Assembly (NCBI GenBank): GCA_015680685.1
Contig: MNCI01002981.1
Span: 62,001-126,000, forward strand
From: Gnetum montanum
Lineage: Eukaryota > Plantae > Gnetophyta
Length of the DNA: 64,000 nt
Direction of reading: 5' to 3'
Positions within the stretch are counted from its first letter, which is position 1. The number at the start of each line of letters is the position of its first letter. The notes under the pieces are model-generated. The model did not search any database. It saw only the letters and a list, made by a program, of their open reading frames with translations, and had not been told where the DNA came from. Made by a program: the position numbers and the translations under genes. Positions 1,991-40,871 of this stretch are shown here, piece after piece.

Positions 1991-2417
1991 CTCTATTACA
2001 TGTTTTATTTTTTTTGGAGTAATGTTCGAGCTTATATTAATCCAAAAAAATGTGTGAACAAATGTACGTTGCGGGCCAATGCCCACCATCACCTAAGGGC
2101 CACAACCACATGCCCGTTCCATGCATGCGCACACACCATCACAGCTGCAATGCCAGCAATCCCCAGATCCAGGAAAACCAAGAGTTCAAACAAGCTTGAA
2201 AGCTAGAGACAGTATGCCCTTGTACATAGAGGGTTCGGTATTCATTCTTGTAGTTCCTCCCCTTCCCCAACACCCCCACCCCCCCCCCCCCCCCCCCCCC
2301 CAAAGCACCCCAAACGGCCACATTTTCCATCTATTAGTTTGTTGTATTTGTCATATTTTTGCCCCCTCCCCCCAGTGCCCTGAAAGGTTGTACACATTTC
2401 TCTCCTGGATGCGAGGC

Positions 2418-3377
2418 CTAGTTAGTAGGTTGATGCAACCCCTTGGCCTCAACCTTCGTCGACGTCCTTGATGTAGTCGTAGTCATTGTCAAGTGTTGTG
2501 CCACAACCCCCTGCCCCATCATGAAAAGCTGGGCCAAGCCCTCACGGTGTTCTGTGAGAACATCCTCCATCCATTGGATGTCTTGCAACCATGCCTCGTT
2601 TGCCTCTTGCCTAGCTTGTTGTCGCATCTCCTCCCACCTACGTTGCCATCTTGCGCCCTCCTCCAACATCGCCTGCTTAGTCGCAATGTGACAAGCCTCC
2701 ATTAGTGTTCTACCGCAAGACCACCCATAAGCAGGTTGCACTGGTGCCATAGCGGAAGACGAACCAAAGGCATCGATGCCATCAGATAATGACTCGTGTC
2801 AATTCGACTGCACTGCTTGGGCCACCTACCCAGAACCCCTACACCTCTGATAAAAAATAGTTGTTGCCGGGCAGGCAATGGGGGTACCCTTGCTCTATAA
2901 CACAAGAAAAACCTCGGGATGCTGCCCTAGCTGCTGCTTGTTCAATGATTCATAGAAGAACTAGGGCAAGTTCACACAGGAACCTTGTATAAGGTACTTC
3001 AAGAAAGTGAAATGCACCTCCACCAGTTTGTGGGGGTACCCAGATTGAACAAAGTACCTTTCAACCATCAACGTCGCATCTTTCCAGATGCCCTATAACC
3101 CGGAATGCCTAATGTGCCTACTGGCCATCCTTGGAACTAGCCCAGGAAAGAACTCTGTGGCATCCATCTGTGCCTTTGCCACAAGGGCCATGATTTCCCT
3201 TGCCACCTCCACCCCCAGTGCCTCCGCAATTGCTTGCATGGAGACTTCAATCCTTCTATCCTGAAACTACGTAGTCTTTCCCTCCTAGTTATCGTAAAAT
3301 TGTTGTGTGGTCAAATTGGGTTCTCCCTCTAACCGTTTGAACATTTCTGCCCATCCCATGCATTCCACAGTGCCCAT
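2418..3377 (-). pseudogene. L1 ORF3: ~319-aa protein resembling LTR-retrotransposon accessory ('env-like') proteins, with a coiled-coil-like C-terminal part
   Basis: A single frame joins ORF-track pieces 3285-3635 and 2418-2750. It has 7 internal stops (6 TAG, 1 TGA) and no frameshift. Sequence: MGTVECMGWAEMFKRLEGEPNLTTQQFYDN*EGKTT*FQDRRIEVSMQAIAEALGV...GIWKDATLMVERYF...HFTFLKYL..VNLP*FFYESLNK. Confidence 0.75.
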
Positions 3378-3403
3378 AATTTGGGCATGTTGGCGAAATC
3401 CGT

Positions 3404-6400
3404 TCACGATGGTGCAAAGAGTAGCCCTTGTGCCATGGCTACCGTTGCCTTCTGCCACAATAGGCGGGCCTCCTTGACCACCGTGGGCACCGTAGGAAGC
3501 TGCTGCCTTTGAAAAACCAGCAAGTTCCACTTCTTCCAGATGATCCACAGTGTGGCAAGTCTTCCCGAGTCCCTGTGGATCCCTGTAACTTGTGTAGACT
3601 AATCTATCTGCCACACAGCTTGTGAAAGTTGACACTTGTCCATAAAATGATTAATCATTTCTAGAGCCACATGGCAACGTGGACAGATGTCCTCAATTTG
3701 TAATCCCTACTCTTGTAACGTGGCCTTCACAGACAGCACCCGGTGCATGATAAGCCACCCAAATGCCTTAATTTTCTCTAGGAGACAACCTTTCCAAAAC
3801 GTTGCCCAACCCTCCATCGACAAATAGAAGGATTTTATCATTTCCTTTGGTTGTTGTCCCAACAAGCCCATTGGTTAGATTTTGGCCACGAACCATCACA
3901 TATTTTTCCAGAGATGAGAGCTGGCCAACGAGGACTTTTATCTACAGTATTTTCATGTTAAAATTTGCACCCATGGCACCTCTCCAGCTGTAGGGGCCAT
4001 GAACTGGTTCAATAATTGATTTAGGTTTAGAGCAACCTCATCTTCAAATCTCAATAGCCCAATACCCCCTGTCGACCTAGGTCTTGCTGTTATTGGCCAT
4101 GAGACCAAATGCATTTTTTGCCCCCCTTTTCCATCGGACCAGACAAAATGTCTCACTATTCTATCTATTTTCTGCATAATACTGACGAGCGGAGTAGCCA
4201 TATAAGTGGCAAAACGAGCAACGACCATCAAGACCACCGTTGCCAATATCATCTTGCCCTTTCGGGACAAGAATCGGCCTGTCTAGAGAGCAGTCTTGTT
4301 TTGTACATGCTCCACCAATCCTTTCCAAGCTTGCCGCCTATTCTAGTAAAAAACAGGCATACCAAGGTAAGTATCCTGGGTGTTTCCTAGCAAAATACCT
4401 AGCGTCTATATGAGCCTAGCCCTCACCATCCCATCCGTGTGAATACAGTAGATAGCTGATTTGCCCTTATTCACCTCTAGACCAACTTCGCGCTACATCC
4501 GTGTCATTGCTCGTAACAGTGCCTCAGCCTGTGGCATCGTGGCTCAAGAGAAAACCATAGTATCATTTGCATAATGTGCCACTAAGTTGTTCACCCCAGC
4601 AACCTGAAGTCCTTGAACCCCTTCCTTGTGACAATAACTTTGGAATAGATCCATAACAATAATGAAAAGGAGTGGCGACAGTGGATCCCCTTACCTTAAG
4701 CCATGCCCTGTGCCTACGAACCCACATAGCTTGCCATTGATGTCTAGAGAGTATCATCCACTGCACTGTATCTGAATACATAGGTTGACAAACTTGGTAT
4801 CAAAACCTTTCTCCACCATCACTCTCCACAGTGTTGCCGAACTGACTGTGTCATAAGCCTTAGTGATGTCAAGTTTGGTACACATTCTAGGAAGTCTAGC
4901 CACCCAGACCAAATGCAGAATCTCTTGTAATAGCAACACTTGGTCCTGTAAGAAACGTCCCTTAATAAACCCAGCCTAATGTTCCCCAACCAACTTCCCC
5001 ATAAGTGGCGTGAGACGCCCAACCAACATCTTGGAGAAAACCCGCATTAGCGTGTTGCAAACCCCAATAGGTCGAAAATGCCCCAAAGCAAAGGGATTGG
5101 GGACTTTGGGTAGGCGCACCACCCATGAACAATTTATTTCTCTCTTGACCTGCTGCCATCTGAGCATACTATTATATGCATCTAGCAAATTGGGCCCCAT
5201 GAGATCCTCATATTCTTTGAAGAATTCGGTTGGCCATCCATCAAGCCCTCAAGCCTTGTTGGCTTGCATAGATTTCAAGGCCCGCAACAGCTCCTCCCGC
5301 GAGAAAGGGTGTAACAATTGCGTATTGTCTGCTTGTGTGAGGACCCGTGGTATGTGTAGAGATATGGGATTTGTGGCCTTCCACCGCTAGATATTCCCCC
5401 AAAACTCATGCAGTGCTTCCAGCCCCCTCGCACTACTGTGTGGGCCTCCCCCACTCATGCTCTCAATGATGTCCTAGAGCTTGTTCTTTTGTGCCTGATT
5501 TTGTCTTGCCATGGCAAAGAAAAACCTGGTGTTCTTGTCCCCTTCCCTTATCCAAGTCACCCTTGAGCACTGTCTCTAATAACTCTCCTCTTCCCTGTAT
5601 AGGTCTTGTAGCTCCCAGAGAAGTTCCTACTCCTCAGTATCCTAGGCCTCCTCCATTTCCTACAGCTATTGGATTGCCCTCAGTTCCTCTTGCACTTGTT
5701 GTCGATATCCCCTGAAGCTATATCTGTCCTTCATTGTTTTGGCCTTAATAGTGTGTTTGAGAGCTCTCAAACCCCCACCGAGGAACTATCGAGGCTCTTG
5801 CGTCCCATTATAGCCTTGCCAAATAGTTGCCACCATGGGCCTGAGCCAGGCCTTAGTCAACTAGGCCTGCTCGAATCGGAACAGCTGAGGCCTCCACCTC
5901 CCTTGCGACTAAATATGATACAAAATGAATCGGTGGTCTGAGGCCTGCCACTCCTACCCCTTCACCGTGATTTGGAAGTCCAACATTAAGCCCTCACTAA
6001 CCCAGATACGGTCAATCCGAGACTGTACACAATCCAGACCCCTTCAGTGGTTACTCTAGGTAAAATTACAGCCTAGGATCTCCAGGTCGATCATTGCATA
6101 TTGCCGCAGAAACTCAATACATGCCTCAGCCCCCGGAGGATCAGTGCACTCATTACCAAATTTTTCCCAGCAATAAAGTCACTAGTTAAAATCCCCCATT
6201 ACCATCCAGCGGGCCATATTGGAGATATGCCTAGCCACCCGTTGGAGTTCCTGAACCCTTGCCTCACAATTTTGTGCCCCATAATAATTTGTAAGCCAGA
6301 TATTTCTTTGCTGCATATAAACCGTCTGACTCCAATCCGACATATCCTCCAGAGTAACCAAAACTTTAGCTAAGATGGCCAACCCCCCTGTGCGGCCCTT

Positions 6401-6577
6401 GTTGGGCACAATGTGGGCATTCCAGCCCTCCCAATTCAGCAATTGCTGTTCAGCCATTTGGACCTTTGTTTCTTGCAAGCACACTACTTCACAGCCGACC
6501 TCCCTCACCATCCTTCGTAGGGTATTTCTTTTGTATGGGGTACCCTAGCCTTAACAATTCTAGGATAAAATCTTCAT
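3404..6577 (-). pseudogene. L1 ORF2: APE endonuclease, reverse transcriptase, zf-RVT; disrupted
   Basis: APE: MKILS*NC..G, VCLQETK, WMVMGDFN. RT: FRPIGVCN, KLDITKAYDTV, GLR*GDPLSP, HYANDT. zf-RVT: KIKAFGWL..CPRC..H..C..VW and WIIWKKWN.LVF. Stop TGA at 3404-06. Confidence 0.92.
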
Positions 6578-6620
6578 GGCAAGATAACACCTATTGCTAG
6601 TATGCCTCCCACAGCGTGCG

Positions 6621-8105
6621 CTATATCCCCAAATCTAGATCCAACTGCATGGAGTTCTTGTGCATTGCCACCTTGTCTGGGCACCCAAGCTTGCTCTCCT
6701 GCCGATGCACTATGTCTCCACCCGGGCTCCTTGCTTGCTGAAGATTAATGTCTGACATCTTCGATTTAGAAGAACCCCTTCCCATAGCGATCCATTCCCC
6801 CAGCAGGGGTAGCTCCAACATGGCTCCCAGTGGCTTGGCGGCCTTGTGAATTGGTGGTGTACGGGGGGACACTGGTACCCCTGTTGCTTGTGTCCCAACC
6901 GAACTATCCCTTGCCATCCGCGATCCTTCTACTGTCTCCTCCCCCCTGAGGCAGTTGAGGGATTGGTAACTCTTCTACTGGTTTCTTTTGCTTCAAGTCC
7001 TGATCCCCTCCTTCCATAGTTGTGTGAGGTTGTTGTTGAGGGCCCTCAGAAGCCACTTGCTTCCAGATCCGGCCCTTTTGCCCAACTTTATGCCATCCTT
7101 GAGTGGCCTCCATCGGCCCTTGATTGTTCGATGCGAGGTGGCTCTTCCCACTATCCTTCCAGTTCCCCTCCAGCCTCCCCGTCAAACTTCACTTGAATCC
7201 GTTCTTCCCCTCCTACGGCATCGAAAATAATCTCTTCGACTTGTTCTGCTGATTGGATCAACCGCCACATGTAGAACTACGTGTACCCCATCCAGTCCAT
7301 GGATGCTGTAAATGCATCAAAACAGATAAACTCTTTGAAGAGACCCGCCAGAGACTTCAGGAAATCGGGTTACCAATATTCTAGTGGCAAATCCAACAAA
7401 TAGACCCAGATTGGCACATAGTCGAAGATGCACAAATCCTGGTGTGCTCTAGGTCACCAAGGTGCCAGGGCTAGGCCATGAGCACTGTAAAACCACGCCC
7501 CCCCCCNCCCTTTCCTGATCGACCAAAGTGGGGAAAATAAATAGCAAATGGTCATCCGTGAGGCTTTGAACCCTAACTATCTCCAACCCCCAGGTGATTT
7601 TGGCCCACTTGTGAATGAGTTCCATCCTCGGTTGCACACCATCAGAAATAAATTTCTTGAGTAGACTCTGCTGGAGTTCCTGCACAGTCTTCTCAGGTGG
7701 CTGCCCAACCCTAATCCGCATCACAGTCCTCTCTTTTTCGCATGCATCGAAGGTGGGCCTGCCATTTTTTGACCCAAGCAGTTGGAGCTTAGGGTCTTGT
7801 AGTATTGCATCCTTGCTTTCCTTGACCCAACATTCCTTGCCACCGCCCTCCCCATGTCCCCTTGGGGTCGCATCGACATTTCCTTCGACTCCCCCTTTTT
7901 TGAGCATCCACTCCACCCGTGCGACACTCATGCTGCTGTGCCCACCGACACTCATGCTGCTTTTTCTGTTGATACTCCCCTTGTAGTTGCCGTTGTTCCC
8001 ACCGCTCTTGCTGTGCTTGCCACCGCTCTTGCTGTGCTTGCCGCTCCCACTGTTCCTGTTGTTCCCGCAACTCCCACTATTTCCGCTGTGGCCACTGCTC
8101 CCATT
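6621..8105 (-). pseudogene. L1 ORF1 (DUF4283/RRM-like), disrupted; boundaries approximate
   Basis: Contains ELIHKWAKITWGLEIVRVQSLTDDHLLFIFPT and, after a frameshift, YVPIWVYLLDLPLEYW..FLKSLAGLF, both typical of plant L1 ORF1. The N-terminus is a Q/W/E/R-rich repeat. Confidence 0.8.
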
Positions 8106-11100
8106 TTCCCCAACTTTTCTCTATTACATGTTTTGTGTCTCAATTTGTTTCAGAATTTGAAGGTTTGTGAGTTATGCTTTTGGGGTTCTTGCTAATTTAT
8201 CCAAGTTTGGCTCAATTCCATCTCATGTTTGACAAATTGAACCTTATTTGAGCATTTAAAGCTTGATTGATGAAGGATGCATGATTTTTTATCTAGTTTT
8301 GCAAATGTGAAGGGAAATCTACACTCATCCAATGAAATTTCTCATGTTTTTCATGCATTTTGTACAACAGGGCATTGTTTTCTTAATTTGTCATTTCAAT
8401 TGATGTAATTGTACTTGTATGTGTCTTCAAACTACTGAACAGAGCTTTAGACATCTTACTTGTGTGTGTGCTTAACTCTTTTTTGGGCCCAATTTGTTTG
8501 ATTTTTTCCATTCCAAAATTATTGAACTCTGTAATTTTCTCAGGACTACAACTTCACTGTGACTTGTGGTTAACTTAGAGGTTAGACCATGGCTCGTGGT
8601 CCATCCCATGAACTGTGGTTGAAAGCATTGGTAACTCATTTTCATTTTATTAACTGGTTTTGGGTCAACATGACTTGAACATGACCCATGGTCACTATCA
8701 TCATGACAACTTCATGACTCATGGTCTACATAGAATTCACCACAACTAAAGTCCTCAACCGGGGATCAACTTTTTGGCTGAATTTCAGATTTTTAATTTC
8801 AGATCCAAGGAGTAGAGATAGACTGTATCCCTGCTGCATGCTCTGACACAATGCAATATCTTGTTGCCAACACATGAGATCACCAACTTCGGATAAAGTG
8901 ATGGGAGGCAGTCATTATTTTAGTTATGTGCATGCCAACACGAACGTGGAGACACAAAATGCCCATGACAGGCTAAAAATAGCAACAAACTCATGTACCC
9001 AATGCACATGACTTCCAAAACTACCCAGCATGCCAACAAATGAAATATCCAGTTGTCCAAGCCAACAGAACATACACACCTTACCAATTGATATGCTTCA
9101 TAAGTTAAGAACAAATACCTCTATTGCTATGGAAATTTATGTTGGCAAAAGGAAATGTAACCTTAGGGTTAAGTTGATGTGGGCCCTTAAAAGATTCTTG
9201 CCTCTTTCTGCAATTTTCCAACTTTAAGATTCTTGCCTATCTTCCCCATTTTCTAAGCAGCCAAACAGTCTCCAACGGTCCAAAATAGTTCCAACATCAG
9301 TTAAGTGCAGTTCTAAACCTACCGAGAACCGTCATTGAAAATAGTCAAAAGTAGACCTAGATCAGCCAAGAAACATAGCTAAAGTTTCTACTAGGTACAT
9401 AAAAGAAAAGCCATCTTGCTTTTCTTTTTACCCTTTCTCTCACTCCTTAAACTAGCATTATCTCCTCTACTTGGAGAAAAGGTGTCTGCAAGAGCAAAAC
9501 CCCCACTTTATAGGCTCAAAGAGACCCCAACCTTTTGGGCAAACACTTACACACCAAACTTTGTTCATTCGATAAAGACTCAACAAGCCATCTCCAAAGT
9601 ATCCCTTTTTAAATTCATGATATAATGATAATTTGACTTGGATAGTCTAGATCTTAAATGCATGGAACATTGGTTGATAGTTTTTGAAACTAAAACTGAT
9701 ATCTTATTACATCTGTATGGACCTGAAGGATCTATTAGACAAATTAACTTGTGCAAAATACATCAATAGCAATAAATCTCAAGTACAGTAGATGCATCCA
9801 ATATTCATGTAGCTTGAATACATCTCTTATATAATTCCTTAGAACTAACATTGATAGCTTGAATAACTCATGCAAAGATTGACTAGAGAACTGTCATTTT
9901 TTTTTGAAGAAATTTTTTCTGCAACATTGTCATAATATATATTACTGATCTTCTACTACCTGTAGTAAACTCAATCAGCATGTTCTATCTTCATGCTGCT
10001 TATTGGTCCATCTTCTAATTTGAACTTAAAGATGATGTGATCTCATTCTTCAGTGCTTTCATGGACATCGGAATTGTTGCATGGAGATATTTTGTTTCAT
10101 CATGCCTACCACTTAAAATGTTTTGCTAGTAAAATTGAAGCTTTTGTTTTTTTCTTTTGTATTTGTGTCTTCTTTTGTTATCTTTTTAAAACTTTTTCTA
10201 TAACAAGTTTCCAAGCTTGTTCTAAATTTGTTAATACATCAAAATTATAAATACCCCATTTTTGGAGCCAAAATTGTTGAGATTTTTAGATGATGTCTCT
10301 TAAAATCTTATTGCTATTTTTATCATTCAAATAGATTATTAAGAACTGATACATTGCTTCAGCCATCTAATAAAAGTATTGCATATAGCAATTTAGTTTT
10401 CACCTTGAATTCATCTTCAAGAGTGTCAAAACAAATATTAAATGAGCCCTTTTTTTTTCTTTTCTGCCATTAATGTGAAATAGAGCTTAAACACACAAGT
10501 TACAAATAATCATGAGTATTGGAATAAACACCATTTAGCATTACCTAGCTCCCTGACGTATTTTTCTTATTCAATGCCAACTTGTAGTTCTCTTTTTGAC
10601 TTGCTTTAATCACTATGAGGATAAGAGGATTTCTAATTTATTTTTGACATTCCGGTATTTTTCACATTTTTTATGTTTCAACTACAAAAAGCATTCATTT
10701 AGAATCTCTTAACCATCCAATGTTTCGTGCATATCAAGACAATTTTAACAAGCATATCGATGCATGGTTACATTTATAAAATTAATATTTTAATCAAACG
10801 TTAAAAAATCTAAACACTTATTAAGACTTTTTCAAACATTAAACATTAAACATTAAAATTTTATAAACCAAGATTCCAACCAAGAAATTATTTATTGATT
10901 TGCACGCTGCATGCAATATTGAACTAGGCCTCCAAATTAAGTGGAATTGGATAAATTTGGATTTTGAGCAAATATTTTAATTAACATGTTTAATTAAAAT
11001 TTCTAGAAAAACATAAAAAATAATCTTTGATCAAGCTTCCATAAATTCTCACCTATTTTTCTATGTAATTTTAATCATTAAATCTAATAAATGTTATTAG

Positions 11101-13527: not shown

Positions 13528-15954
13528 AACTCCCCCTTGAAGACAAATCCAACCAGCCTTCAAGAGATGTGCACTTTTGATTAAGCTTCAGTTATTCCAA
13601 GCTTCTTCCTATAGAAAATGTGTTTTTCAGCTATCATTGGTTTTGTTAAAGTATCAACAATGTTAAGCTTTGTATGGACCTTCTAAACATGCACTGAGCC
13701 ATCCTCTATGATTTCTCTTATGAAGTGAAACTGGATATCTATATGTTTCGTCTTGGCATAAAAGGTAGAATTCTTTGCAAGATGGATTGTACTCAAACTG
13801 TCACAAAACACAACATACCTTTGTTGTTTTAGTCTAAGAGATTGCAAGAATCTCTTCATCCATAACATTTCCTTGCATGCTTCGAGGTCTACATATTCTA
13901 ATTTGGTTGTAGATGAAGTTACCAATGGTTGTAGACGTGACAACCAACTCACTGTTGCACGACCAAAAATAAATGTGGACCTTGTAGTGGAACGTCTTGT
14001 ATCATGATCAGCAGCAAAGTTTGCATCTACAAAACCTTCAATGTGTAGATTAGCATCTCCAAAACACAAGCAATGTGTTTTTGTGCCCTTTAAATATTTT
14101 AGAATCCATTTAACAGCCAGCCAATGATTCCACCCAAAGTTGGTCATAAATCTACTAACTACTCCAACAGTATAAGCAATATCAGGATGTGTACAAACCA
14201 TAGAATACATCAATGACCCAACAGCAGAGGTATATGGAACGTTTTTCACCTTTTCAAAATCCTCCTTTGATAAATTAAATTGTGTTGAAAGAGGTATACT
14301 TATGGGTTTTGCATCCTCCATGTTGAAACATTTTCGAACCTTTTCAATGTAATCTTCTTGACTCAATCACAATTTCTTCCTTTTTCTGTCCTTGCAAGTA
14401 TTCATTCCAAGAATTTTCTTTGCCTATCCCAAATCCTTCATAGCAATTCTTTGCCCATTTCCAGTTTTAGATGTTTTATTTCTGCCATGTCATTTCCAGC
14501 AATTAACATATCATCAACATACAACAACAACTTACCTGAAACATCTCCAGAAAAATACACATAGTGGTCCAGATTGTTTCTCTAATAATTCAGCTTCTTC
14601 ATGAAGGTATCAAACCTTTTATACCACTGCGTAGGGGCTTGTTTCAGACCATATAAGCTCTTTCTTAGTCTGCAAACCAGACCTGAACCTTGCTGTTTTT
14701 CTTACCCTTTTGGTTGTTTCACTTATATTTTCTCCTCCAAATCTCCATGGAAGAATGCTATTTTTATGTCAAGTTGTTCCAATTCTACGTCCATATAGGC
14801 CACCAAAGATAGCACTAAACGTATAGAAGAGTGTTTTACCACTGGAGAAAAAATTTCTTGAAAGTCTATGCCTAGTTTCTGTGCATAGCCTTTCACCACC
14901 AACCTGGCCTTGAAACATTTTTTCCCATTGGCCTCTGTTTTAATTCTGTATAGCCACTTGCACTCCAAGGGTTTTCTCCCTTTTGGCAACTAAACTAGCT
15001 TCCACATTTTGTTCTGTTGGAGTGATTCCCATTCATCATTCATAGTTGCCTTCCACTTTGTAGCATTAGTACATGTCATGGCTTCCTTCATTGTTTCTGG
15101 TTCACCACTATCACTGTAAATTACATAATTTAGCGAGGGAGAGTACCTGTTAGGAGGTCTAGTAGCTCTTGTTGACCTTCTAACCCAATGAGACACATCT
15201 GCAGCTTGTTGTTTATCATCTTCTTACTTATTTCCTTGTCCTCCATTTTCTCCTTGCTATCCTAAGTTCTCAGCTTGCTACCATGTAATTTCATCATGTT
15301 GTCCAATGTTTCCAGATTTGGAAAATCCATCATTTTCAACTTCTTTAGTCACCCTAAAAGGAGTTCTCATGCTATCTGAGCCATTGTTGGCCTTGTCTTT
15401 GGTTTGCAGCTCACTAAACATCACGTTTTCTTTGAATTTAACATTCCTTGATCTCACTACACATTTCAATTCAGGATCCCAAAGTCTGAATTCTAAATCA
15501 CGTTCTCCATATCCAACAAACAAGTAACATTTAGCCTTGTCTTGCAACTTAGTTTTGTTCTCCTTTGGAATATGCATAAATGCCTCACATCCAAAAACTC
15601 TTAAATGACTCTCCAAACAACTTCTGGAATAGCATTATCAATTAAAAAATGTGGAGACCTGTTCACCAAATATGTTATAGTCTTAACTACCTCTCACCAA
15701 AACACCTTAGGTAGGCTAGCACCTGAAACAATTGTTTTAGCACGATTTGACAATGTTTTGTTGCATCTTTTAGCAACTCCATTTTCCTGTGGTGTACTCG
15801 GAGGGGTACGAATGTGCCTAATTCCTTTGCTATTGCAGAAATTAGCAAATACTTTGGAAGTGTACTCCCCACCATTATCAATTTGCAAACATTTTATTTT
15901 CAGACCTGTTTCATTTTCTACTCTTGCAACAAATTTTTTGAAAATTGAAAACAA
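13099..15954 (-). mobile_element. 5'-truncated Ty1/copia (integrase, RT, RNase H, PPT, 3' LTR) in a host intron
   Basis: INT: DNGGEY, TPQENGVA, HLRVFGC. RT: CKWLYRIK, KARLVVKGY, LDIKIAFFHGDLEE. RNase H: YTSAVGSLMY, FCDS, TKHIDIQFHFIRE. Domain order is copia-type. Confidence 0.93.
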
Positions 15955-24088: not shown

Positions 24089-27000
24089 TGATGAGAGGTG
24101 GAGCAATCCCAACACTACCATACAAGTCACAAGTGCTCATGCATGACTAGGTTGTAATTTGCGAATGGACAATATCATTATGCTAGTGATTGATGTTAAG
24201 TTTGAGATTGTTGTCTTTCCACTTCGAGTTAGTGAAGTTCAAGTGTATGGTTTAACTCTTAGTGAGGCATATGATTGGTTGATGTTGTAAGGCTCTTAAT
24301 GCTTTTAATGGTAAACATAATTGAAGATAAAGGTAAAATTCTAAGTCTAGTTAACTAGGGAAACATAAAACCTATCTTAGCCTAGTGTGATGGATATCTA
24401 GTCCTGGTCTACTGTACATGTCCTGGACTCATGTAGTTATCATTGGAATTACCAAGTGGTATTACTACTGAGTGAATTAAGCAATGCCACTACTGAGTTA
24501 CCAAATAACTACACTTAGCACTCGAAACCAGTTGTAATTATTCAGCTTAGTAAGGACATATAAAATAAAGTTCTTGAAACATAAAGGATTAACTAAGAAA
24601 ACAAGAAAATTATTCTAAGTAAACATAGAAAACTAAGTCGATGCAGCAATGATGAAAGGCAATCTTGATCTTTATTGCTAGTCATGAACTATGTTCAAGT
24701 ACAATTCACTTAAATAAAGATTCTAGACAATTGTTCAATACCACACTACAAGCATTCACTCTATTGCTAAAACTATGAAAATAAATTGCAATAATCTAGT
24801 TAAGGATTGGAATGAAAAGTTATGAATTGTATGTCCAAGTGTTAGTATTTATAGCTCTAGACACATCCCAAGACATTGTATCAACAATGACATAGCATGT
24901 ACCATGACATCTTTGCTATGATATCATTAATACAATATCGCAATGCAACAAAAATTAACTTTATCATACCACCATGATTCATTGAAAACTCATCCTCAAG
25001 TTAAAACAAAATGAAGATAGAGTCTCTTACAAAATTGGAAGGTAGATTTGACTTAACATACCGTACTAACTATTTATATGACTTAGAATGCAGCACTGGT
25101 GTTTTTACAAAATGACATAGGTATATGACAAGAAAAAAAACAAAATTTAAAGTTGCTCAATGTAGATCATGTTCCAAGCACTGGATGCTCTTCCATATGC
25201 TTTTTTCCTTTGTCATTAGGCTTTTGAAATTTATATTGATTTAGGAGCACTTGAAGCTTCTCTTCTTTTGCCTCGAGTCATGTAGCATCCATGCTTGTTG
25301 AGCAATGTTAGATGGAGTGAGTACATCCCATGGGCATGGTAGCTGCATAAACATTTTGTTGGCCTTCATGTACTAGACCACAAACTGTCATCTTTCCTCT
25401 TCAAATGCTTTGGTTGTCTTTTTGAGTTCCTAATAATTTGACATGCGATGCACTAGGTTTATTACTACATCTTTCTACCCATGGTAGCTTTCCTTGATAA
25501 TTTCTATTTTAAAGTTTGCCACATGTAGCTTCTATAATGCATCTTTCCTATCAGCAAACTCTCTTTCATACATGACATACATAGTCACTACCTACTACTC
25601 CAATTCATTTTGGGGCTTGCCTACTATTAACATGGCTAGATTAGCATACTAGAGGTTTGCTAATCACATATACTCTATTAAGTCTTCAATCTGCATGTGC
25701 TTGTTTTTTACTTCTACTTCGTGGACATGGGCTAAACTATCAAAGATGGGTTGCCAATTTGGATTTTGCGCAAAAAGAGAACTGATCTTGGCCTTTGCCA
25801 TCTGGATCTCTTTTTCATTGATTTGCTTGTACATACCCACTTGATTTTTGAAATGCTCTTTGATGCTTTGTGCTTCTTAGCCTTATTTTTCCACATGCTT
25901 ATTTTGATTTCTGAATTCTGATGGATGGCGTAGACTTCTTTCATTGATAAGGTTCTATTCTTGTGAGCCAACCAACTCATGTCTTGGTTTGCTCTAGCTA
26001 GTTGTTCTCTGAGTTGTTGGATGCTTTACTCAAGAACATTCTTTTGCTTTTCAATATTGGTCAACCAAGCATTATCAGTAGCAAGTTGTTTATTCTCCTC
26101 TTGTAAGCCTATGAGTGCTTTGGCATGTGCATACATTTGAGCCTCTGCCATTGATGCATCACATACTTTCTTCTCATTTTCTCTTTGCATCTTCATGTTA
26201 TGGTCAATAAGCTATCTTATATAATCAGTTTTAAATTTTTCAAGTTGATTAGGTGTTATGAATTATGTGGGGTCTTTTCTTTTAGCTTTTAGGGTGGCTA
26301 ACTCCTCTTGCAATTATTGCACCTTGTTTTCTACATGCTTGGCCTTGGTTTTAGCATGACCAACTTTTCTTTTGTGGCTATTAGATTAGATTGGACTATA
26401 ATGATATTGCTTGGGATATCAAAAATATTTTACATTACTTGGCCCTTCTACAATAGTCTGTCTAAAATCTCTTCATGCTCCATAAGTGTCATTGAGGTTT
26501 TGGCAAGTATTTAAGCATCCTATGCTCCAGAGATATCAGCTGGTGGCACAACAGGAATGTTAAAAGATTCCTTAATGTGATCATTGATGACCTCTATGAC
26601 TCTTACTGCATCTTGATGTTGCATGATCATAACTGTGGCACCTGCACCAATTTCAAGAATAACTTGGAATTATATAGCATTCTTGAAAATTTGTTATGTT
26701 CAATCTTCCTCTTCTCTTGCTTGCAATGAAAATTTTCCAGTGGCTAGTTCTGTGGATACTATGGGCCTTGCAAATATCTTCTGTACTTTGTACAATTTTC
26801 CCCTTTTCTTCTTCCCCAACTTATTGTTTCTATGATTTGTTGTAGATGGCTAATGGATGGTTGATAATCTTGTGGCCATAGTAGTGGTACTTCTTACTAT
26901 TGTTGTTGTTGTTGTTGTTGCTCATCTTTGGGTTGGCTACTAGGTCCTACCTATTGCTGCTAACTAGTAGTGGGAATGTTACCAACAGGAGTGGAATTTG

Positions 27001-27691
27001 CAACTTCCTCTGTGCCTACTAATTTTTCTACTTGATCCTTCTTTGATGGCACTAGCTTGAACATCTTTGCATAGGAAGCATTTTGATCCTTCCTTGGGAC
27101 ATCATTGATATATCCCAAGTTCCTAGCTTGCTTGCACAGCTTCCTGATGAGGCAAGGGAATGAAAGTGTTAGCTTTCCTACCTTCTTCTCTTTGAACCAC
27201 CTCTGGATTTCAAGGAAGAATAGAAGGGCAATGTTAGCATTGACTTTTTCCATCAGGGTTGCGCTTCCTTTGGTGACATATGTAGATATCCTATTGAGCC
27301 TTTTTTTTGGAAACAAGTGATAGGTTCTAATCTTGAAGTATATTTTCTCCTCAACCATGAGCTTTCTATAATCTTTATCTTCTTTTCCAGATTCTCTATG
27401 CAACCATAGCCTCTTAGCATTAGTATTTGATCTTGTTGAGATTTGTGTCATATTTTCCCCTTCATTTGGGATGTTGAGAATCTTTGCAATTGCTTCTACT
27501 AAGTAAGGCATAGAGACTCCTTCAATTTTGACTATAGCATCTACTTTCTTATTTTGCCAAAATCGGTATGTTTCCCCTAGATACCACTTACCATTGTTAA
27601 ATAGTGCAGGCCATAAAGGAGACACTTGGAGTTGCGTCATTATAGCTTTTGGAGTAAACTCCATGTAAGGACCAAAATTCAAATCCATGAT

Positions 27692-30600
27692 TGATGAGTG
27701 GCGAGGTACCCCTACACTCAACCATACGAAACGAGCGTAGCACGCGTGATTCGGTCGAACTTCGCAGACATAATGCCTAAACGCCCCATGGAACACTTGG
27801 GGTTAATCATTTGTTGTCTTCCCAGACTTACTTGTTGCTGTCACAGTGTATGGTTAAGTAAGTCCTAGGTATATGATTTTTTTTGGTCTTTTATGGTTTT
27901 ATGTCTTCTATGCTAAGAGTGAAAGGTTGAGAAAGCTAACTAACTCTAACTAAGGACTAAGTCTAAATTAACTAGCATCAACATCTGTTCCCACTTACCG
28001 TACACACCCTGAACTATGCAACTGTAGCTACCAAACACTAATCATTACTGGGATCACCACACGTAACGCACGTGCTCGAAGTGGTCATACTGAGGCACTT
28101 AACTAGCCTNNNNNNNNNNNNNNNNNNNNNNNNNNNNNNNNNNNNNGGAGTGATCAAATTGCTAGAGTTTCCCTACTTTAAGCCTAGGATGAGAAATGAG
28201 GGGAGTGCTGCCTCTTATTTATAGATCTAGAGACGGACTGCGATATTGCGTATGCGATATCGCAGGGGACAATGCGATATCGCGTACGCGATATCGCAGT
28301 GCATGCGATGTCGTGTCTCATCATACCCCCATGACTGAATGGAAACTCATCCTTGAGTTCCTTACAATAATATCAGGTAGGTATGGAATTATTAAGGGGA
28401 ATGGAACTAATGGGATAACATGTGAACGGATCATCATTACAAGACTTGAAAAAGTTGGTGTTCATGACAACAAGGGTGAACACCTTATTACAATGACATT
28501 AGGCCTTTGTTGACAATTGAGAAAGAGAGAGAGAAAGAAGTGTTGCTGTTGCCAACGCTAAGATTGCACCTTTGTTGTCCATCCGTAAGCACGTCATCGA
28601 TCTTGCTCCTTGCATAGCTACTTCAACGCTACTCCATTCCAAGTGTTTGCTCCAAATCCAATCCATTGTTGCATGATCACCATCTGCACACACAACACAG
28701 TCTTGTATTAGCAAGGGTAGATGAATCATCATGTAATTAATACCTTGCTGCAGTGAAAGTCCATTGGCTAGGTTGTGGTATGGCTGATATGGATCAGGAG
28801 ATATATTAATGATGACTACCGAAGGTGTACAGGTTAAGAAGAAAATAAAGAAATTTAGGGCTAGGAGAAAATAAAAAAAATCAGGCCCCGTACCCCCATG
28901 ACTAATCGCGAACCTCTGGTAGCATTAGAATAGAGAAGGAAAAGGAGTAAGAAAAATAGATAAAAAGGGACAACTATAGCATCGATGAAAGGGATGTCAA
29001 GATGGTAATGAACAAAATAAAATTAATTGCAAAATGTCAGGGGAAAGAAGTTAACGGATGCTCCAAATAGGAATGTCAGTGGGTCCTCCCCAAAGCAGGC
29101 TCATGCCCTTAATGCCCTGACAAACCCACATTCAAAGAGTTCGTAGGCTTTGGGAATGTTATTTGGAACAAGAGTTAAAGTCTTAACCGTAAGAATTTAC
29201 CAAAAAGAAAACAATGCATCAACCAAAATATATACACTAATGATACAACCGGCAATGAGGNNNNNNNNNNNNNNNNNNNNNNNNNNNNNNNNNNNNNNNN
29301 NNNNNNNNNNNNNNNNNNNNNNNNNNNNNNNNNNNNNNNNNNNNNNNNNNNNNNNNNNNNNNNNNNNNNNNNNNNNNNNNNNNNNNNNNNNNNNNNNNNN
29401 NNNNNNNNNNNNNNCAATAAAAATAAGAAGTCTTTGCATGGTGTGGTTCTCACGCATAAAAACACAAAACACACAAAAAAAACGAAGTGAGAATTCAAAA
29501 CACACCCCTTAGACGAAATAAACTTGGGCTACAAGCACTGGTTATGGAACCAAAANGTGAGAACCACACCATGCAAAGACTTCTTATTTTTATTGTCTCA
29601 GCTTCCAATAATTGGGTAACATTGGAATGGCAAGAAAAATCAAGAAGAAACATTCAAGCACCCAAGAAAATGACCAACACAAAAGTATCAAATTCTCTTG
29701 AAGTCACACCCTTTTCAATCCATGAGTCCTTCCTTAGTTTGAGAAATACTCAGTCATTGATTTGTTTAAGTTCTTATTAAGAAGGGGACTGTACATTTCC
29801 AAGTCGAGAGAAACCATAGAAATTGGTGGATGGATGGATGAAGTGATCTCATTGCCTGCCATATCAAAAGAAACATACCTTAGTATCAACATTGTGACTG
29901 AAAGGTAAAAACCAAACATTAGCAATTAATATGAAAATAGTTCATACCAGCATTCTGAACACTTATTATGGGACAAACTTACATGGTGGATCACACACAC
30001 ACACACACACAAAATGGAAAACTATAACGATGTTGTAAAACAAAAACTAAAAAAGTTAAAGAAATTTGTAAAACAAAAATGTGTAAAACAAAAACNGCTC
30101 CTTCGAGTAGCTGTCAACCATGGGGTGTCTACTACTTCTTGTGTGGTTGCTACATACAAGCATCTTTATTGCAAAGTTTCAAGGGCACACCTGTCACATG
30201 GAGGCATTTCCTCCATGTCATCACCCGATGAATCACTATATGTGATGCATGGAACTTTCCTCTTCTCGATCTTTCCACATATGTTTATCTTAGATATTTC
30301 CAAGGAAAAATCGCAGATCCTAAGGCATGCATCTATTGCACTAAGCCATGTCCTTCCCATTATAATCGAGAAGTCCCCTTCATTGTTGTTCACTTCAATC
30401 ACCAGAAAATTAGCTGGATAAGACCAACCACACATAGTGGTAATGATGTCCTCCACCAATCCCAAGGGAATGGTGATGGACTGGTCTGCCAACTCTAGTT
30501 AAATGTTGCTCTTCTTAAGTTGAGGTAGGTTCTAGGCGTGATACATCTCTCGTGAAATTAAGTTAACTCCGGAACCTGAGTCAAGAAGAGCGCTATGTGG

Positions 30601-33600
30601 TTCATTTTCGATGATCTGCAAATAAATTAAGGGACTCCCAAGGTCAATTAGTTTCCTGGGAAGGTGGCCCACCTTGATCCAATCAGTTACAGTATGTGTT
30701 AACATAACCGCATGCGTTAAGCTCTAATTTTGGACGGAAGGGTGCTTCGAAGGGTTAGATGGTGGAGGAGTGTACATGGGCCCAACTGCTTGTTGTTGCG
30801 AGAGTTTGTCTGGGCTTTTGGTTTTGAAGTAGGGTCTTCTCTTTTTACAGTTATCAGAACCAGTAGCAGGTTGGATATTTATAGCTCTCGCAGCATGACA
30901 TTGCTGCAGTTGAGGAGGAAGTTCCCTTTGCATTGTTGGAGCAGGAGGTGTTATGGGAACTACTTGTCGAAGAAGAGGTACAGATGGATTAGGAGGATGG
31001 TGTGGGTATGGAGTGTCTCCCGGAGGAGGAGTCCTTCTGAATTACTCCCGAACTTGGTAGTGATGGTTGGGGGTTGTGTGACTCATAGAGTCACTTGGAG
31101 AAATCGGTTGCTGCACATAATATCCATAAGGGTCAGGCTACCGATAAGGGTACTGATGTGTTGGCGGTGGCATTCCCTAGGACTGTGGGTGTTGCCATTG
31201 CTGATGTTGTGCGATGGGCTGTGGTGGAATTCCACTTGGATAATACGTTAGTGGTTGGTGGAACTTCCTTGGGTTACCTTGTGGATAAGGTAACCTTCGG
31301 GGTGTTTGCCGTTGGTTGAGTCTTGGATTAAGCGCATACACCCCAGACTCCTGTAGATGTGAGATGATGGGGCAACATCCCTTAGGATGGTCATAGTGGT
31401 AGATCTCACATCCACCATCATCGTCTGTGTCAGAGTTCTCAGCCACATCGGAGTTAGTGATTTTTCCCTTACCCTTGTTATGTGCAGGGCCTAAATCTCT
31501 TCACTTTTTCTTATCTTTGACACTACTTTGTTCAACCTTAGACTCTTCTACAATTTTTAAGACATTTTCAATTTTAGAGTCTAAGGAACTCCATACGTCA
31601 TCTACCTTAGCCACTATTTCTGTTGTGAGCTTTTGAAGTGGTAAGGTCCTTCTGTTCACCAACTCTTCGAGTGGTGACTCATCCTCNNNNNNNNNNNNNN
31701 NNNNNNNNNNNNNNNNNNNNNNNNNNNNNNNNNNNNNNNNNNNNNNNNNNNNNNNNNNNNNNNNNNNNNNNNNNNNNNNNNNNNNNNNNNNNNNNNNNNN
31801 NNNNNNNNNNNNNNNNNNNNNNNNNNNNNNNNNNNNNNNNNNNNNNNNNNNNNNNNNNNNNNNNNNNNNNNNNNNNNNNNNNNNNNNNNNNNNNNNNNNN
31901 NNNNNNNNNNNNNNNNNNNNNNNNNNNNNNNNNNNNNNNNNNNNNNNNNNNNNNNNNNNNNNNNNNNNNNNNNNNNNNNNNNNNNNNNNNNNNNNNNNNN
32001 NNNNNNNNNNNNNNNNNNNNNNNNNNNNNNNNNNNNNNNNNNNNNNNNNNNNNNNNNNNNNNNNNNNNNNNNNNNNNNNNNNNNNNNNNNNNNNNNNNNN
32101 NNNNNNNNNNNNCGTGGGATGTTGTTCATATCTAATCGTTTGATCTGACTATCCTTTAAATGCCTTGTGGGAATCCTAACTACCTTCGTAATGTCAAGCA
32201 TACTTTGGGTTGCGAGTAGGGGCTCGTCATGATCTTCTCTTTCATGACACCTGTGATGTCTGCGTTGTTTCCTACTCTCCCTACATCCTTGCCCTTATCC
32301 TCTCTCTCGACTTTCCTATCGAGGTCTTTCGTCCTTCTTACTTTTGTTCTCACCTTTATGTTCATGGTGGCTGCGCCCAGATGTGGAAGGAGAGGATGAG
32401 TGATGGGATGAAGGAGAAGAAGAAGGGGAACCATCGCCATGATGATGTTTCTTGCCTTCTCTTCGGCTGCTACGACCCCGATCATGGTGACGATCTACGT
32501 GCCCATCCTTAGCATAAGTGGTTGTTCCCTCTATGAATAGTTGGTGTTCACAGGCATTAGAACCAGGGATATGTATCATTGATCATAGGTTCTGATACTC
32601 AACCTCCTCATCATCGTTAGGAGGGGGAACATCTTTTGCTAAAGAACCCGTGATAAGGGGTTCTTCATCTCCTATTTCACTAAGGACGTGCAGGACCTTG
32701 CCCTTCAGTAGTGTATGTTGGCTCTCCTGCCGTAATTCTCTCATACGTTGGGCATCTGTGGGATAATAATCCCTCATGTCAAAGTCTTCCGCAATGTATT
32801 CAACATATAGCTTGATCATGCCTATCTGTGCCAAGGCATGGAAAAGCATGTGAGAGATTGATCGATCTAGGGGTAACACAATGTTACCTTGCAAATCTCT
32901 CCACCGCAGCTGTTCGTCTTGATGGAGAATAAAAGTAAAATTAGGAATATACTCATTGGGATGAGTATATGTCATCTTATATTGTTTAGGACTTGGCTGA
33001 TTTTGGTTATGTGTTTTATCTTGCCGACTGTCTCGTGTGTGGTCCTTAGGTGGTGAGTTGCTCTTATGAGAAGAAGGCAGTTTTATCAGTGTGCTAATTT
33101 ACCGTTATATAAATTTTTTTTCTTGATTAACCCAAAGGTCCATTAAGGCTCACAACGATGTGAGTGATATCCCTTATGTTCTATTCGGTGCACAAACACT
33201 TAGTCCCCGGCAACGACGCCAATGATGAGTGGCGAGGTACCCCTACACTCAACCATACGGAACGAGTGTAGCACGCATGATCCGGTTGAACTTCGTAGAC
33301 TAAATGCCTAAACGCCCCATGGAACACTTGGGGTTAATCATTCGTTGTCTTCCTANNNNNNNNNNNNNNNNNNNNNNNNNNNNNNNNNNNNNNNNNNNNN
33401 NNNNNNNNNNNNNNNNNNNNNNNNNNNNNNNNNNNNNNNNNNNNNNNNNNNNNNNNNNNNNNNNNNNNNNNNNNNNNNNNNNNNNNNNNNNNNNNNNNNN
33501 NNNNNNNNNNNNNNNNNNNNNNNNNNNNNNNNNNNNNNNNNNNNNNNNNNNNNNNNNNNNNNNNNNNNNNNNNNNNNNNNNNNNNNNNNNNNNNNNNNNN

Positions 33601-39720: not shown

Positions 39721-40871
39721 CTCTTGGTGAAAGATGAATGTAAAATTAGAGTAGTAAAGATCATTGTGAGCAATGAGATTCTTGTTTGCATAGGCATACT
39801 CTAGTCTTTATCATCATTTGTTCTATCATTGTTCCTTCATATCTCTTTGGCATGTGATAATTTTTCCTTAGTTAAAGCCATGTTATAAGTGTGGTGTTGG
39901 GTTAAGTGTGTGTTATTAGAATTATTTAAAGGTTATAAAAATTGACTTTATGGTTCCTAATACAAAAAACTTTGTAAGATTAATTACTTAGCACATATTA
40001 ACACATCCTTGGAAATGGTACCAATGATGAGTGATGGAGCAATCTCAACACTCTACCATGTAAGTCACAAGTGCTCATGCATGAGCAGATCATAATCTCT
40101 AGTGATTGATGTTAAGTTCAAGATCGCTATCTTCCTACTTTGAGTTAGTGAAGTTCGAGTGTATGGTTTAACTCTTAGTAAGGCATATCATTGGTTGATG
40201 CTGTAAGGCTCTTAATGCTTCTAATGGTAAACATGATTGAAGATAAAGGTAAAATTCTAAGTCTAGTTAATAAGAAAACATAAATCTATCTTAGCTTAGT
40301 ATAGATATCCAATCTTGGTCTACTATACATGCCTTGGATTCATGTAATTATCACTAAGATTACCAAGTGGTATTCCTATTGAGTGAATCAAGAAACACCA
40401 CTATTGGGTTACAAGATAACTATAGTTAGCACTTGAGATGAGTTGTATCCATTCTGCTTACTAATGACATGTAAAATAAAGTGCTTGAAATGTAAAGGAT
40501 TAAGTAAGCATAAAAAACTAAGTGGATGTTGCAATGATGAAAAACAATCTTGATCTTTATTGCTAGTCATGAATTGTGTCTAAGTAGAATTCACTCAGAT
40601 AAAGATTTTGAACAACTACTCAACACAATAATATGGGCATTCACTTTATCACTAAAACTATGAAAACAAATTGCAACAATCTAGCTAAGGGTTGGAATGA
40701 AAAGTTATAAATTGTGTGCCCAAGTGCTAGTATTTTATAGGGCTACACACATCTCAAGACATGATATCAATGATAACATAACATGTACCACAATTTCATA
40801 TCTATGACTTTGTTGCTACAATATTGTAGATACAATATCGTAGTGCAACCAAAATTGAATTTATCAATAGC

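Follow-up and report, generated by a model that had tools for sequence, protein, structure and literature searches.

We analysed a stretch of 64,000 nucleotides of Gnetum montanum DNA (the window; GenBank assembly GCA_015680685.1, contig MNCI01002981.1, positions 62,001 to 126,000), in which a long interspersed nuclear element (LINE) of the plant L1 type lies on the minus strand. Behind the second open reading frame (ORF2) of this element we observed a further coding region, ORF3. We slightly favour the reading that ORF3 is a selected, Transposase_32-like third coding region of the LINE family, which would be expressed as a protein of its own. The features on which this reading turns are the following.

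2007-8118, minus strand: the LINE as inserted, between target-site duplications (TSDs) of 16 base pairs (bp)
2418-3377, minus strand: ORF3 as read in this copy, 319 codons with 7 decay stops; its real start may be 3388, 3377 or 3359, or it may be fused to ORF2
2943-3362, minus strand: N-terminal domain of ORF3 (residues 6-145), a likely member of the Transposase_32/ATHILA ORF-1 group (phmmer and profile)
2466-2723, minus strand: long amphipathic helix at the C-terminus of ORF3, about residues 219-304, predicted by AlphaFold2
3367-3406, minus strand: ORF2-ORF3 junction, with the TGA of ORF2 at 3406-3404, an ATG at 3388 in the ORF2 frame, an ATG at 3377 in the ORF3 frame, and a one-base difference at 3367

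The ORF3 frame runs from ATG 3377 to the TAG at 2420-2418, interrupted by six TAG and one TGA, and its last 126 codons are free of stops. Its codon-position base bias gave a chi-squared of 37.1 (p 1.7e-6), with p 0.74 for the 3' untranslated region (UTR) and p 0.04 and 0.59 for two flanks of equal length as controls. A 3-periodic model trained on ORF2 placed this frame 40-62 log units above the two other frames, and did so in both halves of ORF3. As judged from its sequence, the ORF3 region is coding beyond chance. Stop density was similar in ORF3 (7/319 codons) and ORF2 (30/1046; Fisher p 0.69), and the two resembled each other in GC content (0.50 vs 0.47) and in GC content at third codon positions (GC3; 0.57 vs 0.53), in line with the original prediction that ORF3 is composed like the rest of the LINE. 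Equal stop density and similar GC3 are what would be expected if both frames were intact when this copy inserted. The same prediction had described a co-oriented frame from 3377 to 2418 with seven TAG or TGA stops and no frameshift. The stops were as described, and the frame is secure from frameshift for codons 5-145, where a two-sequence profile of the homologs introduced below aligns residues 3-145 with one gap; it is probably not so for the first four codons, since other copies carry an additional base at 3367.

Evidence on other copies came from the contigs of four public DNA sequencing runs (organism labels A, B, C and D), which were aligned to the LINE at 80% likeness and counted in 30 bins. 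Contig depth is not copy number in these data, single listed contigs having a depth of 3-13, and the listed material comprises 32 of 9,796 contig pieces and 40 of 2,802 variant rows. Part of the LINE was contained in 8 of the 21 listed runs, from four organism labels and three studies; no RNA run was among those listed as matching the LINE in this sequencing-run search. All 30 bins were covered in each of the four DNA runs. The summed depth of the ORF3 domain bins was 368, 531, 494 and 120 in the four runs, against ORF2 medians of 229, 303, 398 and 65, and the deepest ORF3 bin (2820-3043) holds the motif that is best conserved in the homologs. Depth was continuous across the ORF2-ORF3 junction in every run (151, 306, 361 and 87 in the junction bin).

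The junction was bridged by two of the listed pieces, which are 84-86% identical to this copy: X5#10 (3188-3547, with 51 differing letters and 7 gaps) and X8#27 (3185-3648, with 76 differing letters and 3 gaps). Since run X5 also contains near-identical pieces (one of them, #9, with 2 differences in 400), X5#10 represents another copy. Run X8 holds 0.10 of this copy's words and an empty insertion site, yet the junction is present. These diverged bridging contigs from two organism labels, together with the continuous depth in four, rule out a one-off 3' transduction confined to this copy. One could still suppose that ORF3 is found only here and that the covering contigs come from a separate multi-copy long terminal repeat (LTR) element, as short contigs cannot show whole elements and few pieces span the junction. 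The divergence of the bridging pieces, their two labels (one with the empty site) and the unbroken depth largely refute this supposition and make it very improbable. One X5 contig (depth 7) joins 2113 to 3304 with 21 other letters between them, and is possibly a deletion derivative lacking most of ORF3.

We also looked at how ORF3 differs among copies. In each of the four runs, 93-100% of depth has TGG at stop codon 161 of ORF3. Two hand-read loose-end consensuses with 50-57% DNA identity remained in frame: that of X7 (12 contigs) reads Q-G-V-W-R-E-V-A-I opposite stop-G-I-W-K-D-A-T-L in this copy, and that of X8 (9 contigs) reads L-K-H-L-W-Q-G-S-P opposite L-K-Y-L-I-Q-G-S-C, and its L, Q and G carry synonymous changes. 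Such in-frame, residue-conserving divergence, seen here on 18 codons, is a pattern of the kind that purifying selection leaves. With diverged contigs in four labels, the junction bridged in two, the coding signal and the homologs, the original claim that the extra coding region is a family feature gains support, and the region looks selected as a protein. We consider it highly likely that it is common to the LINE family and not private to this copy.

A phmmer scan of 1.84 billion representative proteins returned three matches for ORF3. Two unnamed proteins, P0063 (E 4e-7) and P0064 (E 2.3e-5), matched residues 6-145 at 27% identity each, with one single-residue gap over the 140 residues; the third, P0065, a repetitive surface-type protein of 3,400 residues of which 53 were matched, was dropped as chance. 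A profile made from P0063 and P0064 recovered ORF3 at 59.2 bits and scored the rest of the window at 3 bits or less, which is a reciprocal check and not an independent one. On this alignment, residues 6-145 are homologous to both proteins. Two further relatives, L001 and L002, come from metagenome contigs; the search with the homolog alignment gave 2/275 metagenome contigs, both short, and 0/81 viral contigs. ORF3 as the query gave 0/104 stretches of metagenome contigs, 0/3 viral contigs and 0/531 candidates at E 0.01 in a word-indexed protein search, and sequence searches of the PDB gave nothing below E 0.1.

The two homologs were then used as a bridge to known families. P0063 matched Transposase_32 (PF20167) with E 1.5e-5 and 25.4 bits over profile positions 3-144 of 177. 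P0064 had a feature score of 0.92 to PF20167 clusters and likewise 0.92 to PF03078 clusters, and its Atlas model gave template modelling (TM) scores of 0.71/0.70 to the former and 0.67/0.77 to the latter; the feature search and the model comparison count as one source. Transposase_32 is found in an additional ORF of Athila and is related to PF03078, according to the available part of PMC11728184. ORF3 lies outside strict PF20167 membership, for which the curated cut-off is 45 bits. Transitively, through P0063 and P0064, its domain very probably belongs to the Transposase_32/ATHILA ORF-1 group, a kinship that the original prediction had not noticed. The homology also bears on the idea that constraints on RNA or translation keep the frame open while the protein drifts. 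The C-terminal half of ORF3, with no credible homolog and lower coverage, would suit this idea. We regard it as extremely improbable, since residues 6-145 keep 27% identity with a single gap to proteins of unrelated source, and a frame behind ORF2 cannot bring ribosomes to ORF2.

Transposase_32 ORFs are also present in other repeats of the window.

26963-27802, minus strand: Transposase_32 ORF, stop-free over 280 codons, E 2e-8, under the cut-off
51619-52322, plus strand: second Transposase_32-like ORF, frameshifted, about 38% identical to the first, downstream of gag/protease-like repeats

When ORF3 was compared with these two ORFs directly, the z scores were -0.2 and 2.1 (570 and 33 of 1000 shuffles), which is not significant, and they are not taken as the donor of ORF3. 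Their GC3 is 0.41 in one and 0.57 in the second, a decayed copy; that of ORF3 (0.57-0.58) tracks the LINE, and two metagenome homolog loci have 0.44 and 0.39. A word search with the window Transposase_32 ORF gave 0/203 candidates. Upstream of the ORF at 26963-27802 and on its strand there is a weak retroviral-type protease match (30169-30702), and the ORF is flanked by repeats of 78% identity (24089-24966 and 40025-40866). The region is probably an Athila-like LTR element that carries an accessory ORF of its own.

The presence of such ORFs in the window, and the fact that 3' transduction is normal L1 behaviour (PMC7264820), would fit a passenger origin, in which an LTR-element gene was 3'-transduced once into the founder LINE and brought it no benefit. 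This is improbable, because the frame and similar residues are kept between copies whose DNA differs by 43-50% over short stretches, ORF3 was as intact as ORF2 when the decay of this copy began, its GC3 matches that of the LINE, and coverage peaks on the conserved motif.

At the junction, an extra base behind 3367 was seen in other copies, at 41/140, 41/168, 79/427 and 24/71 of depth (18-34%, in all four runs). A frameshift in ORF1 at 7504, which is necessarily private to this copy, shows at only 0-17% of depth, so that the low share at 3367 is compatible with the loss of a base in this copy. With the extra base, ORF3 falls into the frame of ORF2: TGA 3406, five codons, ATG 3388 fifteen bases behind the TGA, and then the domain. 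The start at 3377 is thereby doubtful, and may instead be 3388 or 3359. What remains of the dedicated third gene that had been predicted is an extra coding region at the level of the family; its separate start at 3377 is in question. The ORF3 frame is also stop-free for 91 codons upstream of ATG 3377 (3378-3650), where it has no ATG and overlaps, in the -1 frame, the last part of ORF2. In the other frames of ORF2 there are about 5 stops per 100 codons, against none in this stretch, which may be due to chance or may point to overlap or frameshifting.

The same extra base allows ORF3 to be read as the C-terminal domain of ORF2 (endonuclease, reverse transcriptase, zf-RVT, Transposase_32 and helix), in the position occupied by RNase H in other plant L1s. 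In this copy the stop at 3406 would then be due to decay and one base would have been lost at 3367, and the domain would anchor the ORF2 complex on chromatin or a partner. The base restores the ORF2 frame in all four runs; with 30 decay stops in 1046 ORF2 codons, 7 of them TGA, one in a linker of 45 codons is likely; and the homologs continue for about 30 residues on the N-terminal side of the conserved GW, which takes them beyond the TGA. On the other side, the TGA stands about 35 codons behind the last conserved ORF2 motif, and it is about there that ORF2 usually stops in plant L1s lacking RNase H. An in-frame ATG follows 15 bases after the TGA. Nor did the ORF2 frame gain any advantage when the upstream frames were tested, and an earlier profile test of these frames at the junction had found nothing significant. 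Known members of the domain group are separate ORFs in those parts of PMC11728184 and PMC6317226 that were available. We find the fusion rather unlikely, and a fair case can be made that ORF3 is translated as a separate protein. If it is separate, the LINE RNA would have three cistrons, the last being reached by reinitiation; if it is fused, ORF2 would have a new C-terminal domain in the RNase H slot, which would be a candidate for integration targeting.

Behind its N-terminal domain, ORF3 consists of a linker and the predicted long amphipathic helix. Two AlphaFold2 models had a mean predicted local distance difference test (pLDDT) of 39.8 and 40.5, and only the helix rose above 50 (block means 55-75); it is a candidate for the extended coiled coil of the Athila group. 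No transmembrane stretch was found in ORF3 (maximum 19-residue hydropathy 1.39), and an env-like membrane protein was rejected for this reason. RNase H and the plant mobile domain (PMD) were rejected as readings of ORF3 as well, there being no Pfam match to RVT_3/RNase H or to PMD.

We propose that an ancestor of this LINE acquired an accessory ORF of the Athila type at its 3' end long ago, by read-through 3' transduction or by a template switch during target-primed reverse transcription, and that the captured ORF would have been kept by selection while it drifted to the base and codon composition of the LINE. Such an ancient capture from an LTR element with later compositional drift is probable; we infer its direction and, the homolog contigs being short (0.7-1.9 kilobases, kb), also the LTR-element donor. 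The short spacer between ORF2 and ORF3 suggests, from the layout, that ORF3 would be made as a separate small protein by reinitiation behind the ORF2 stop, from ATG 3388 or 3359. This protein may self-assemble via its C-terminal helix, with host chromatin or silencing factors as its targets. The available part of PMC13547354 reports, for the Athila domain as well as the anti-silencing factor VANC, pentamers formed via extended coiled coils, with many host contacts, all of these being predictions only. As ORF3 would have a comparable build of globular domain and long helix, we propose a self-assembling, host-facing factor. By this analogy we tentatively suggest that ORF3 could oligomerise through the helix and either counter silencing or steer integration. 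It is doubtful, though conceivable, that we are dealing with a tricistronic LINE, that is, a plant L1 which runs an Athila-type gene as its third cistron and thereby has its own anti-silencing or chromatin-targeting factor. Were this so, the much-debated 'env-like' accessory proteins of plant retrotransposons would be portable host-manipulation modules and not parts of an envelope or particle, since the LINE has no particle, LTR or integrase.

Several observations weigh against ORF3 as a selected, Transposase_32-like coding region of the family that is expressed on its own. The Transposase_32 score of P0063, at 25.4 bits, is under the curated cut-off; ORF3 itself had neither a Transposase_32 nor any other Pfam match in repeated Pfam scans, and P0064, L001 and L002 had no Transposase_32 match by hmmscan. 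All four relatives lie on contigs of 0.7-1.9 kb, and the homolog profiles miss the window's own Transposase_32 ORFs (4.2 bits or less; hhalign probability 7%). Both structure models are poor (mean pLDDT about 40). The profile scores of the three frames upstream of the junction are close, with 64.0 bits for the third frame (3/500 shuffles), 62.5 for that of ORF2 (40/500) and 61.1 for that of ORF3 (33/500), and the extra base at 3367 bears both on the start of ORF3 and on its separateness from ORF2. The C-terminal half of ORF3 had a depth of 100, 114, 159 and 15 in the four runs, about a third or less, and may be poorly conserved. Among the listed variant rows, a sense codon in other copies was seen for only two of the seven internal stops. 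The evidence for selection consists of two 30-base consensuses (the 18 codons above) and the depth pattern. Finally, no further full-length, TSD-bounded copy was seen among the short contigs, which cannot show whole elements.

The remainder of the LINE comprises the following features.

1991-2006, no strand: TSD on the 3' side of the element, an exact 16-mer equal to 8119-8134; empty-site joint in contigs
8119-8134, no strand: TSD on the 5' side of the element, an exact 16-mer equal to 1991-2006
2007-2015, minus strand: short A tail, 8 A (2015-2008) and one T, followed by the TSD, which begins AAAA
2016-2417, minus strand: 3' UTR of about 400 nucleotides, with no coding periodicity (chi-squared p 0.74)
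3404-6577, minus strand: ORF2 with AP endonuclease, reverse transcriptase and zf-RVT; many decay stops, no frameshift
6600-8118, minus strand: ORF1 region, frameshifted, with one break at a G run that has an N at 7507; DUF4283 at 7286-7504
7987-8042, minus strand: 21-nucleotide repeats inside the ORF1 region

That 2007-8118 was inserted as one unit, as had been claimed, was confirmed. The TSDs are identical and can be extended in neither direction, and the A tail, short as it is, is correctly placed. In three of the four DNA runs (X5, X7 and X8), contigs fuse 1990 directly to 8119, with 16 letters that fit both sides and correspond to a single copy of the TSD. The flank of the LINE is itself repetitive (summed depth 6-45), so that the empty site may be paralogous and not orthologous; the joint defines the inserted unit either way. 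The terminal bin at the 3' end (1924-2147) was deeply covered in all four runs. At the 5' end, 7972-8118 with the 21-nucleotide repeats had a low depth (15, 15, 17 and 2), which possibly reflects a copy- or subfamily-specific 5' end or a truncation of most copies. The 3' UTR contains a G run of 29 nucleotides on the minus strand (2273-2301); G-rich tracts occur in the 3' UTRs of other L1s. A perfect tandem duplication of 273 nucleotides at 1322-1873 adjoins the LINE and may be an assembly artefact.

ORF2 is a single frame from ATG 6577 to the TGA, with Pfam matches to Exo_endo_phos (E 5.7e-11), RVT_1 (E 7.6e-28) and zf-RVT (E 2.1e-11). It had been described as complete through zf-RVT up to a stop at 3404; the single frame and the three domains agree with this description, and the completeness is one of frame only, with 33 internal stops over 1058 codons. 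In ORF1, DUF4283 matched with E 3e-9 in one of three frames. No Pfam match to RNase H or RVT_3 was found at the end of ORF2 or in the region behind zf-RVT. The 60 database matches of ORF2 have 23-35% identity, and those with names are almost all plant proteins of L1 architecture. The LINE is, on these domain matches, a decayed plant L1-type element, and its family is a divergent one, in a plant that the protein collection covers poorly. The features of the plant L1 clade are present (endonuclease, reverse transcriptase and zf-RVT in ORF2, DUF4283 in ORF1, A tail and TSD). The plain layout of two ORFs and a non-coding 3' UTR, or a terminal RNase H, is violated by the coding region behind zf-RVT, which is not RNase H, and the LINE is thus a variant and not a plain member. 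Elsewhere in the window, fragments of Copia-type reverse transcriptase/RNase H and integrase-like ORFs were recognised by eye at 13686-15634 (minus strand), of which the one that was scanned had no Pfam match.

We compared the LINE and its ORF3 with known systems. Extra modules in LINEs are known, as with RNase H and, in the accessible part of PMC5890265, a DNA methyltransferase; a module of the ORF3 type in a LINE is apparently new. Our literature search, made without Repbase and the supplements of PMC5203782 and PMC6317226 and covering its sources in part, gave no LINE with a Transposase_32/Athila ORF and no plant L1 in which a sense ORF follows ORF2. What the extra ORFs of plant LTR retrotransposons do is treated as an open question in the available parts of PMC7264820, PMC6317226 and PMC5718144. 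A selected relative inside a LINE would restrict the possible functions, as it must help an element that uses target-primed reverse transcription without a virus-like particle, and the finding points to an exchange of modules between LTR and non-LTR classes.

Like other plant L1-clade LINEs, this element has a DUF4283 ORF1, an ORF2 with endonuclease, reverse transcriptase and zf-RVT, an A tail and a TSD of the variable-length kind at an AAAA site; unlike them, it adds about 320 codons behind zf-RVT that are not RNase H, and its ORF2 is at most 35% identical to its 60 matches. DUF4283 is the dominant ORF1 domain of plant L1s, and the only extra L1 ORFs named are ORF0 and reverse-strand ORFs, both in the part of PMC5203782 available. 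ORF3 resembles the additional ORFs of the Athila type (PF20167/PF03078) in its N-terminal domain, as linked via P0063 and P0064, in its sense position downstream of the enzyme gene, and in the long C-terminal helix that is likewise predicted for the Athila domain (PMC13547354, in part). It differs from them in that it sits in a TSD-bounded non-LTR element with no virus-like particle, is too diverged for the Pfam model, and follows ORF2 so directly that no room is left for a separate promoter. Plant L1s that acquired RNase H, and the Symbiodinium LINEs with a DNA methyltransferase ORF as far as PMC5890265 describes them, are similar cases of a LINE lineage that keeps an extra protein module. 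Their modules, however, are cellular or archaeal-type enzymes, whereas ORF3 would be a non-enzymatic accessory, apparently shared with LTR retrotransposons. By analogy, ORF3 may also be likened to VANC of the VANDAL transposons, an accessory, host-facing protein that combines a globular domain with a coiled coil in the same part of PMC13547354; in contrast to VANC and the plant mobile domain proteins, ORF3 has no PMD match, sequence similarity to them was not found, and we do not claim membership of that group for it.

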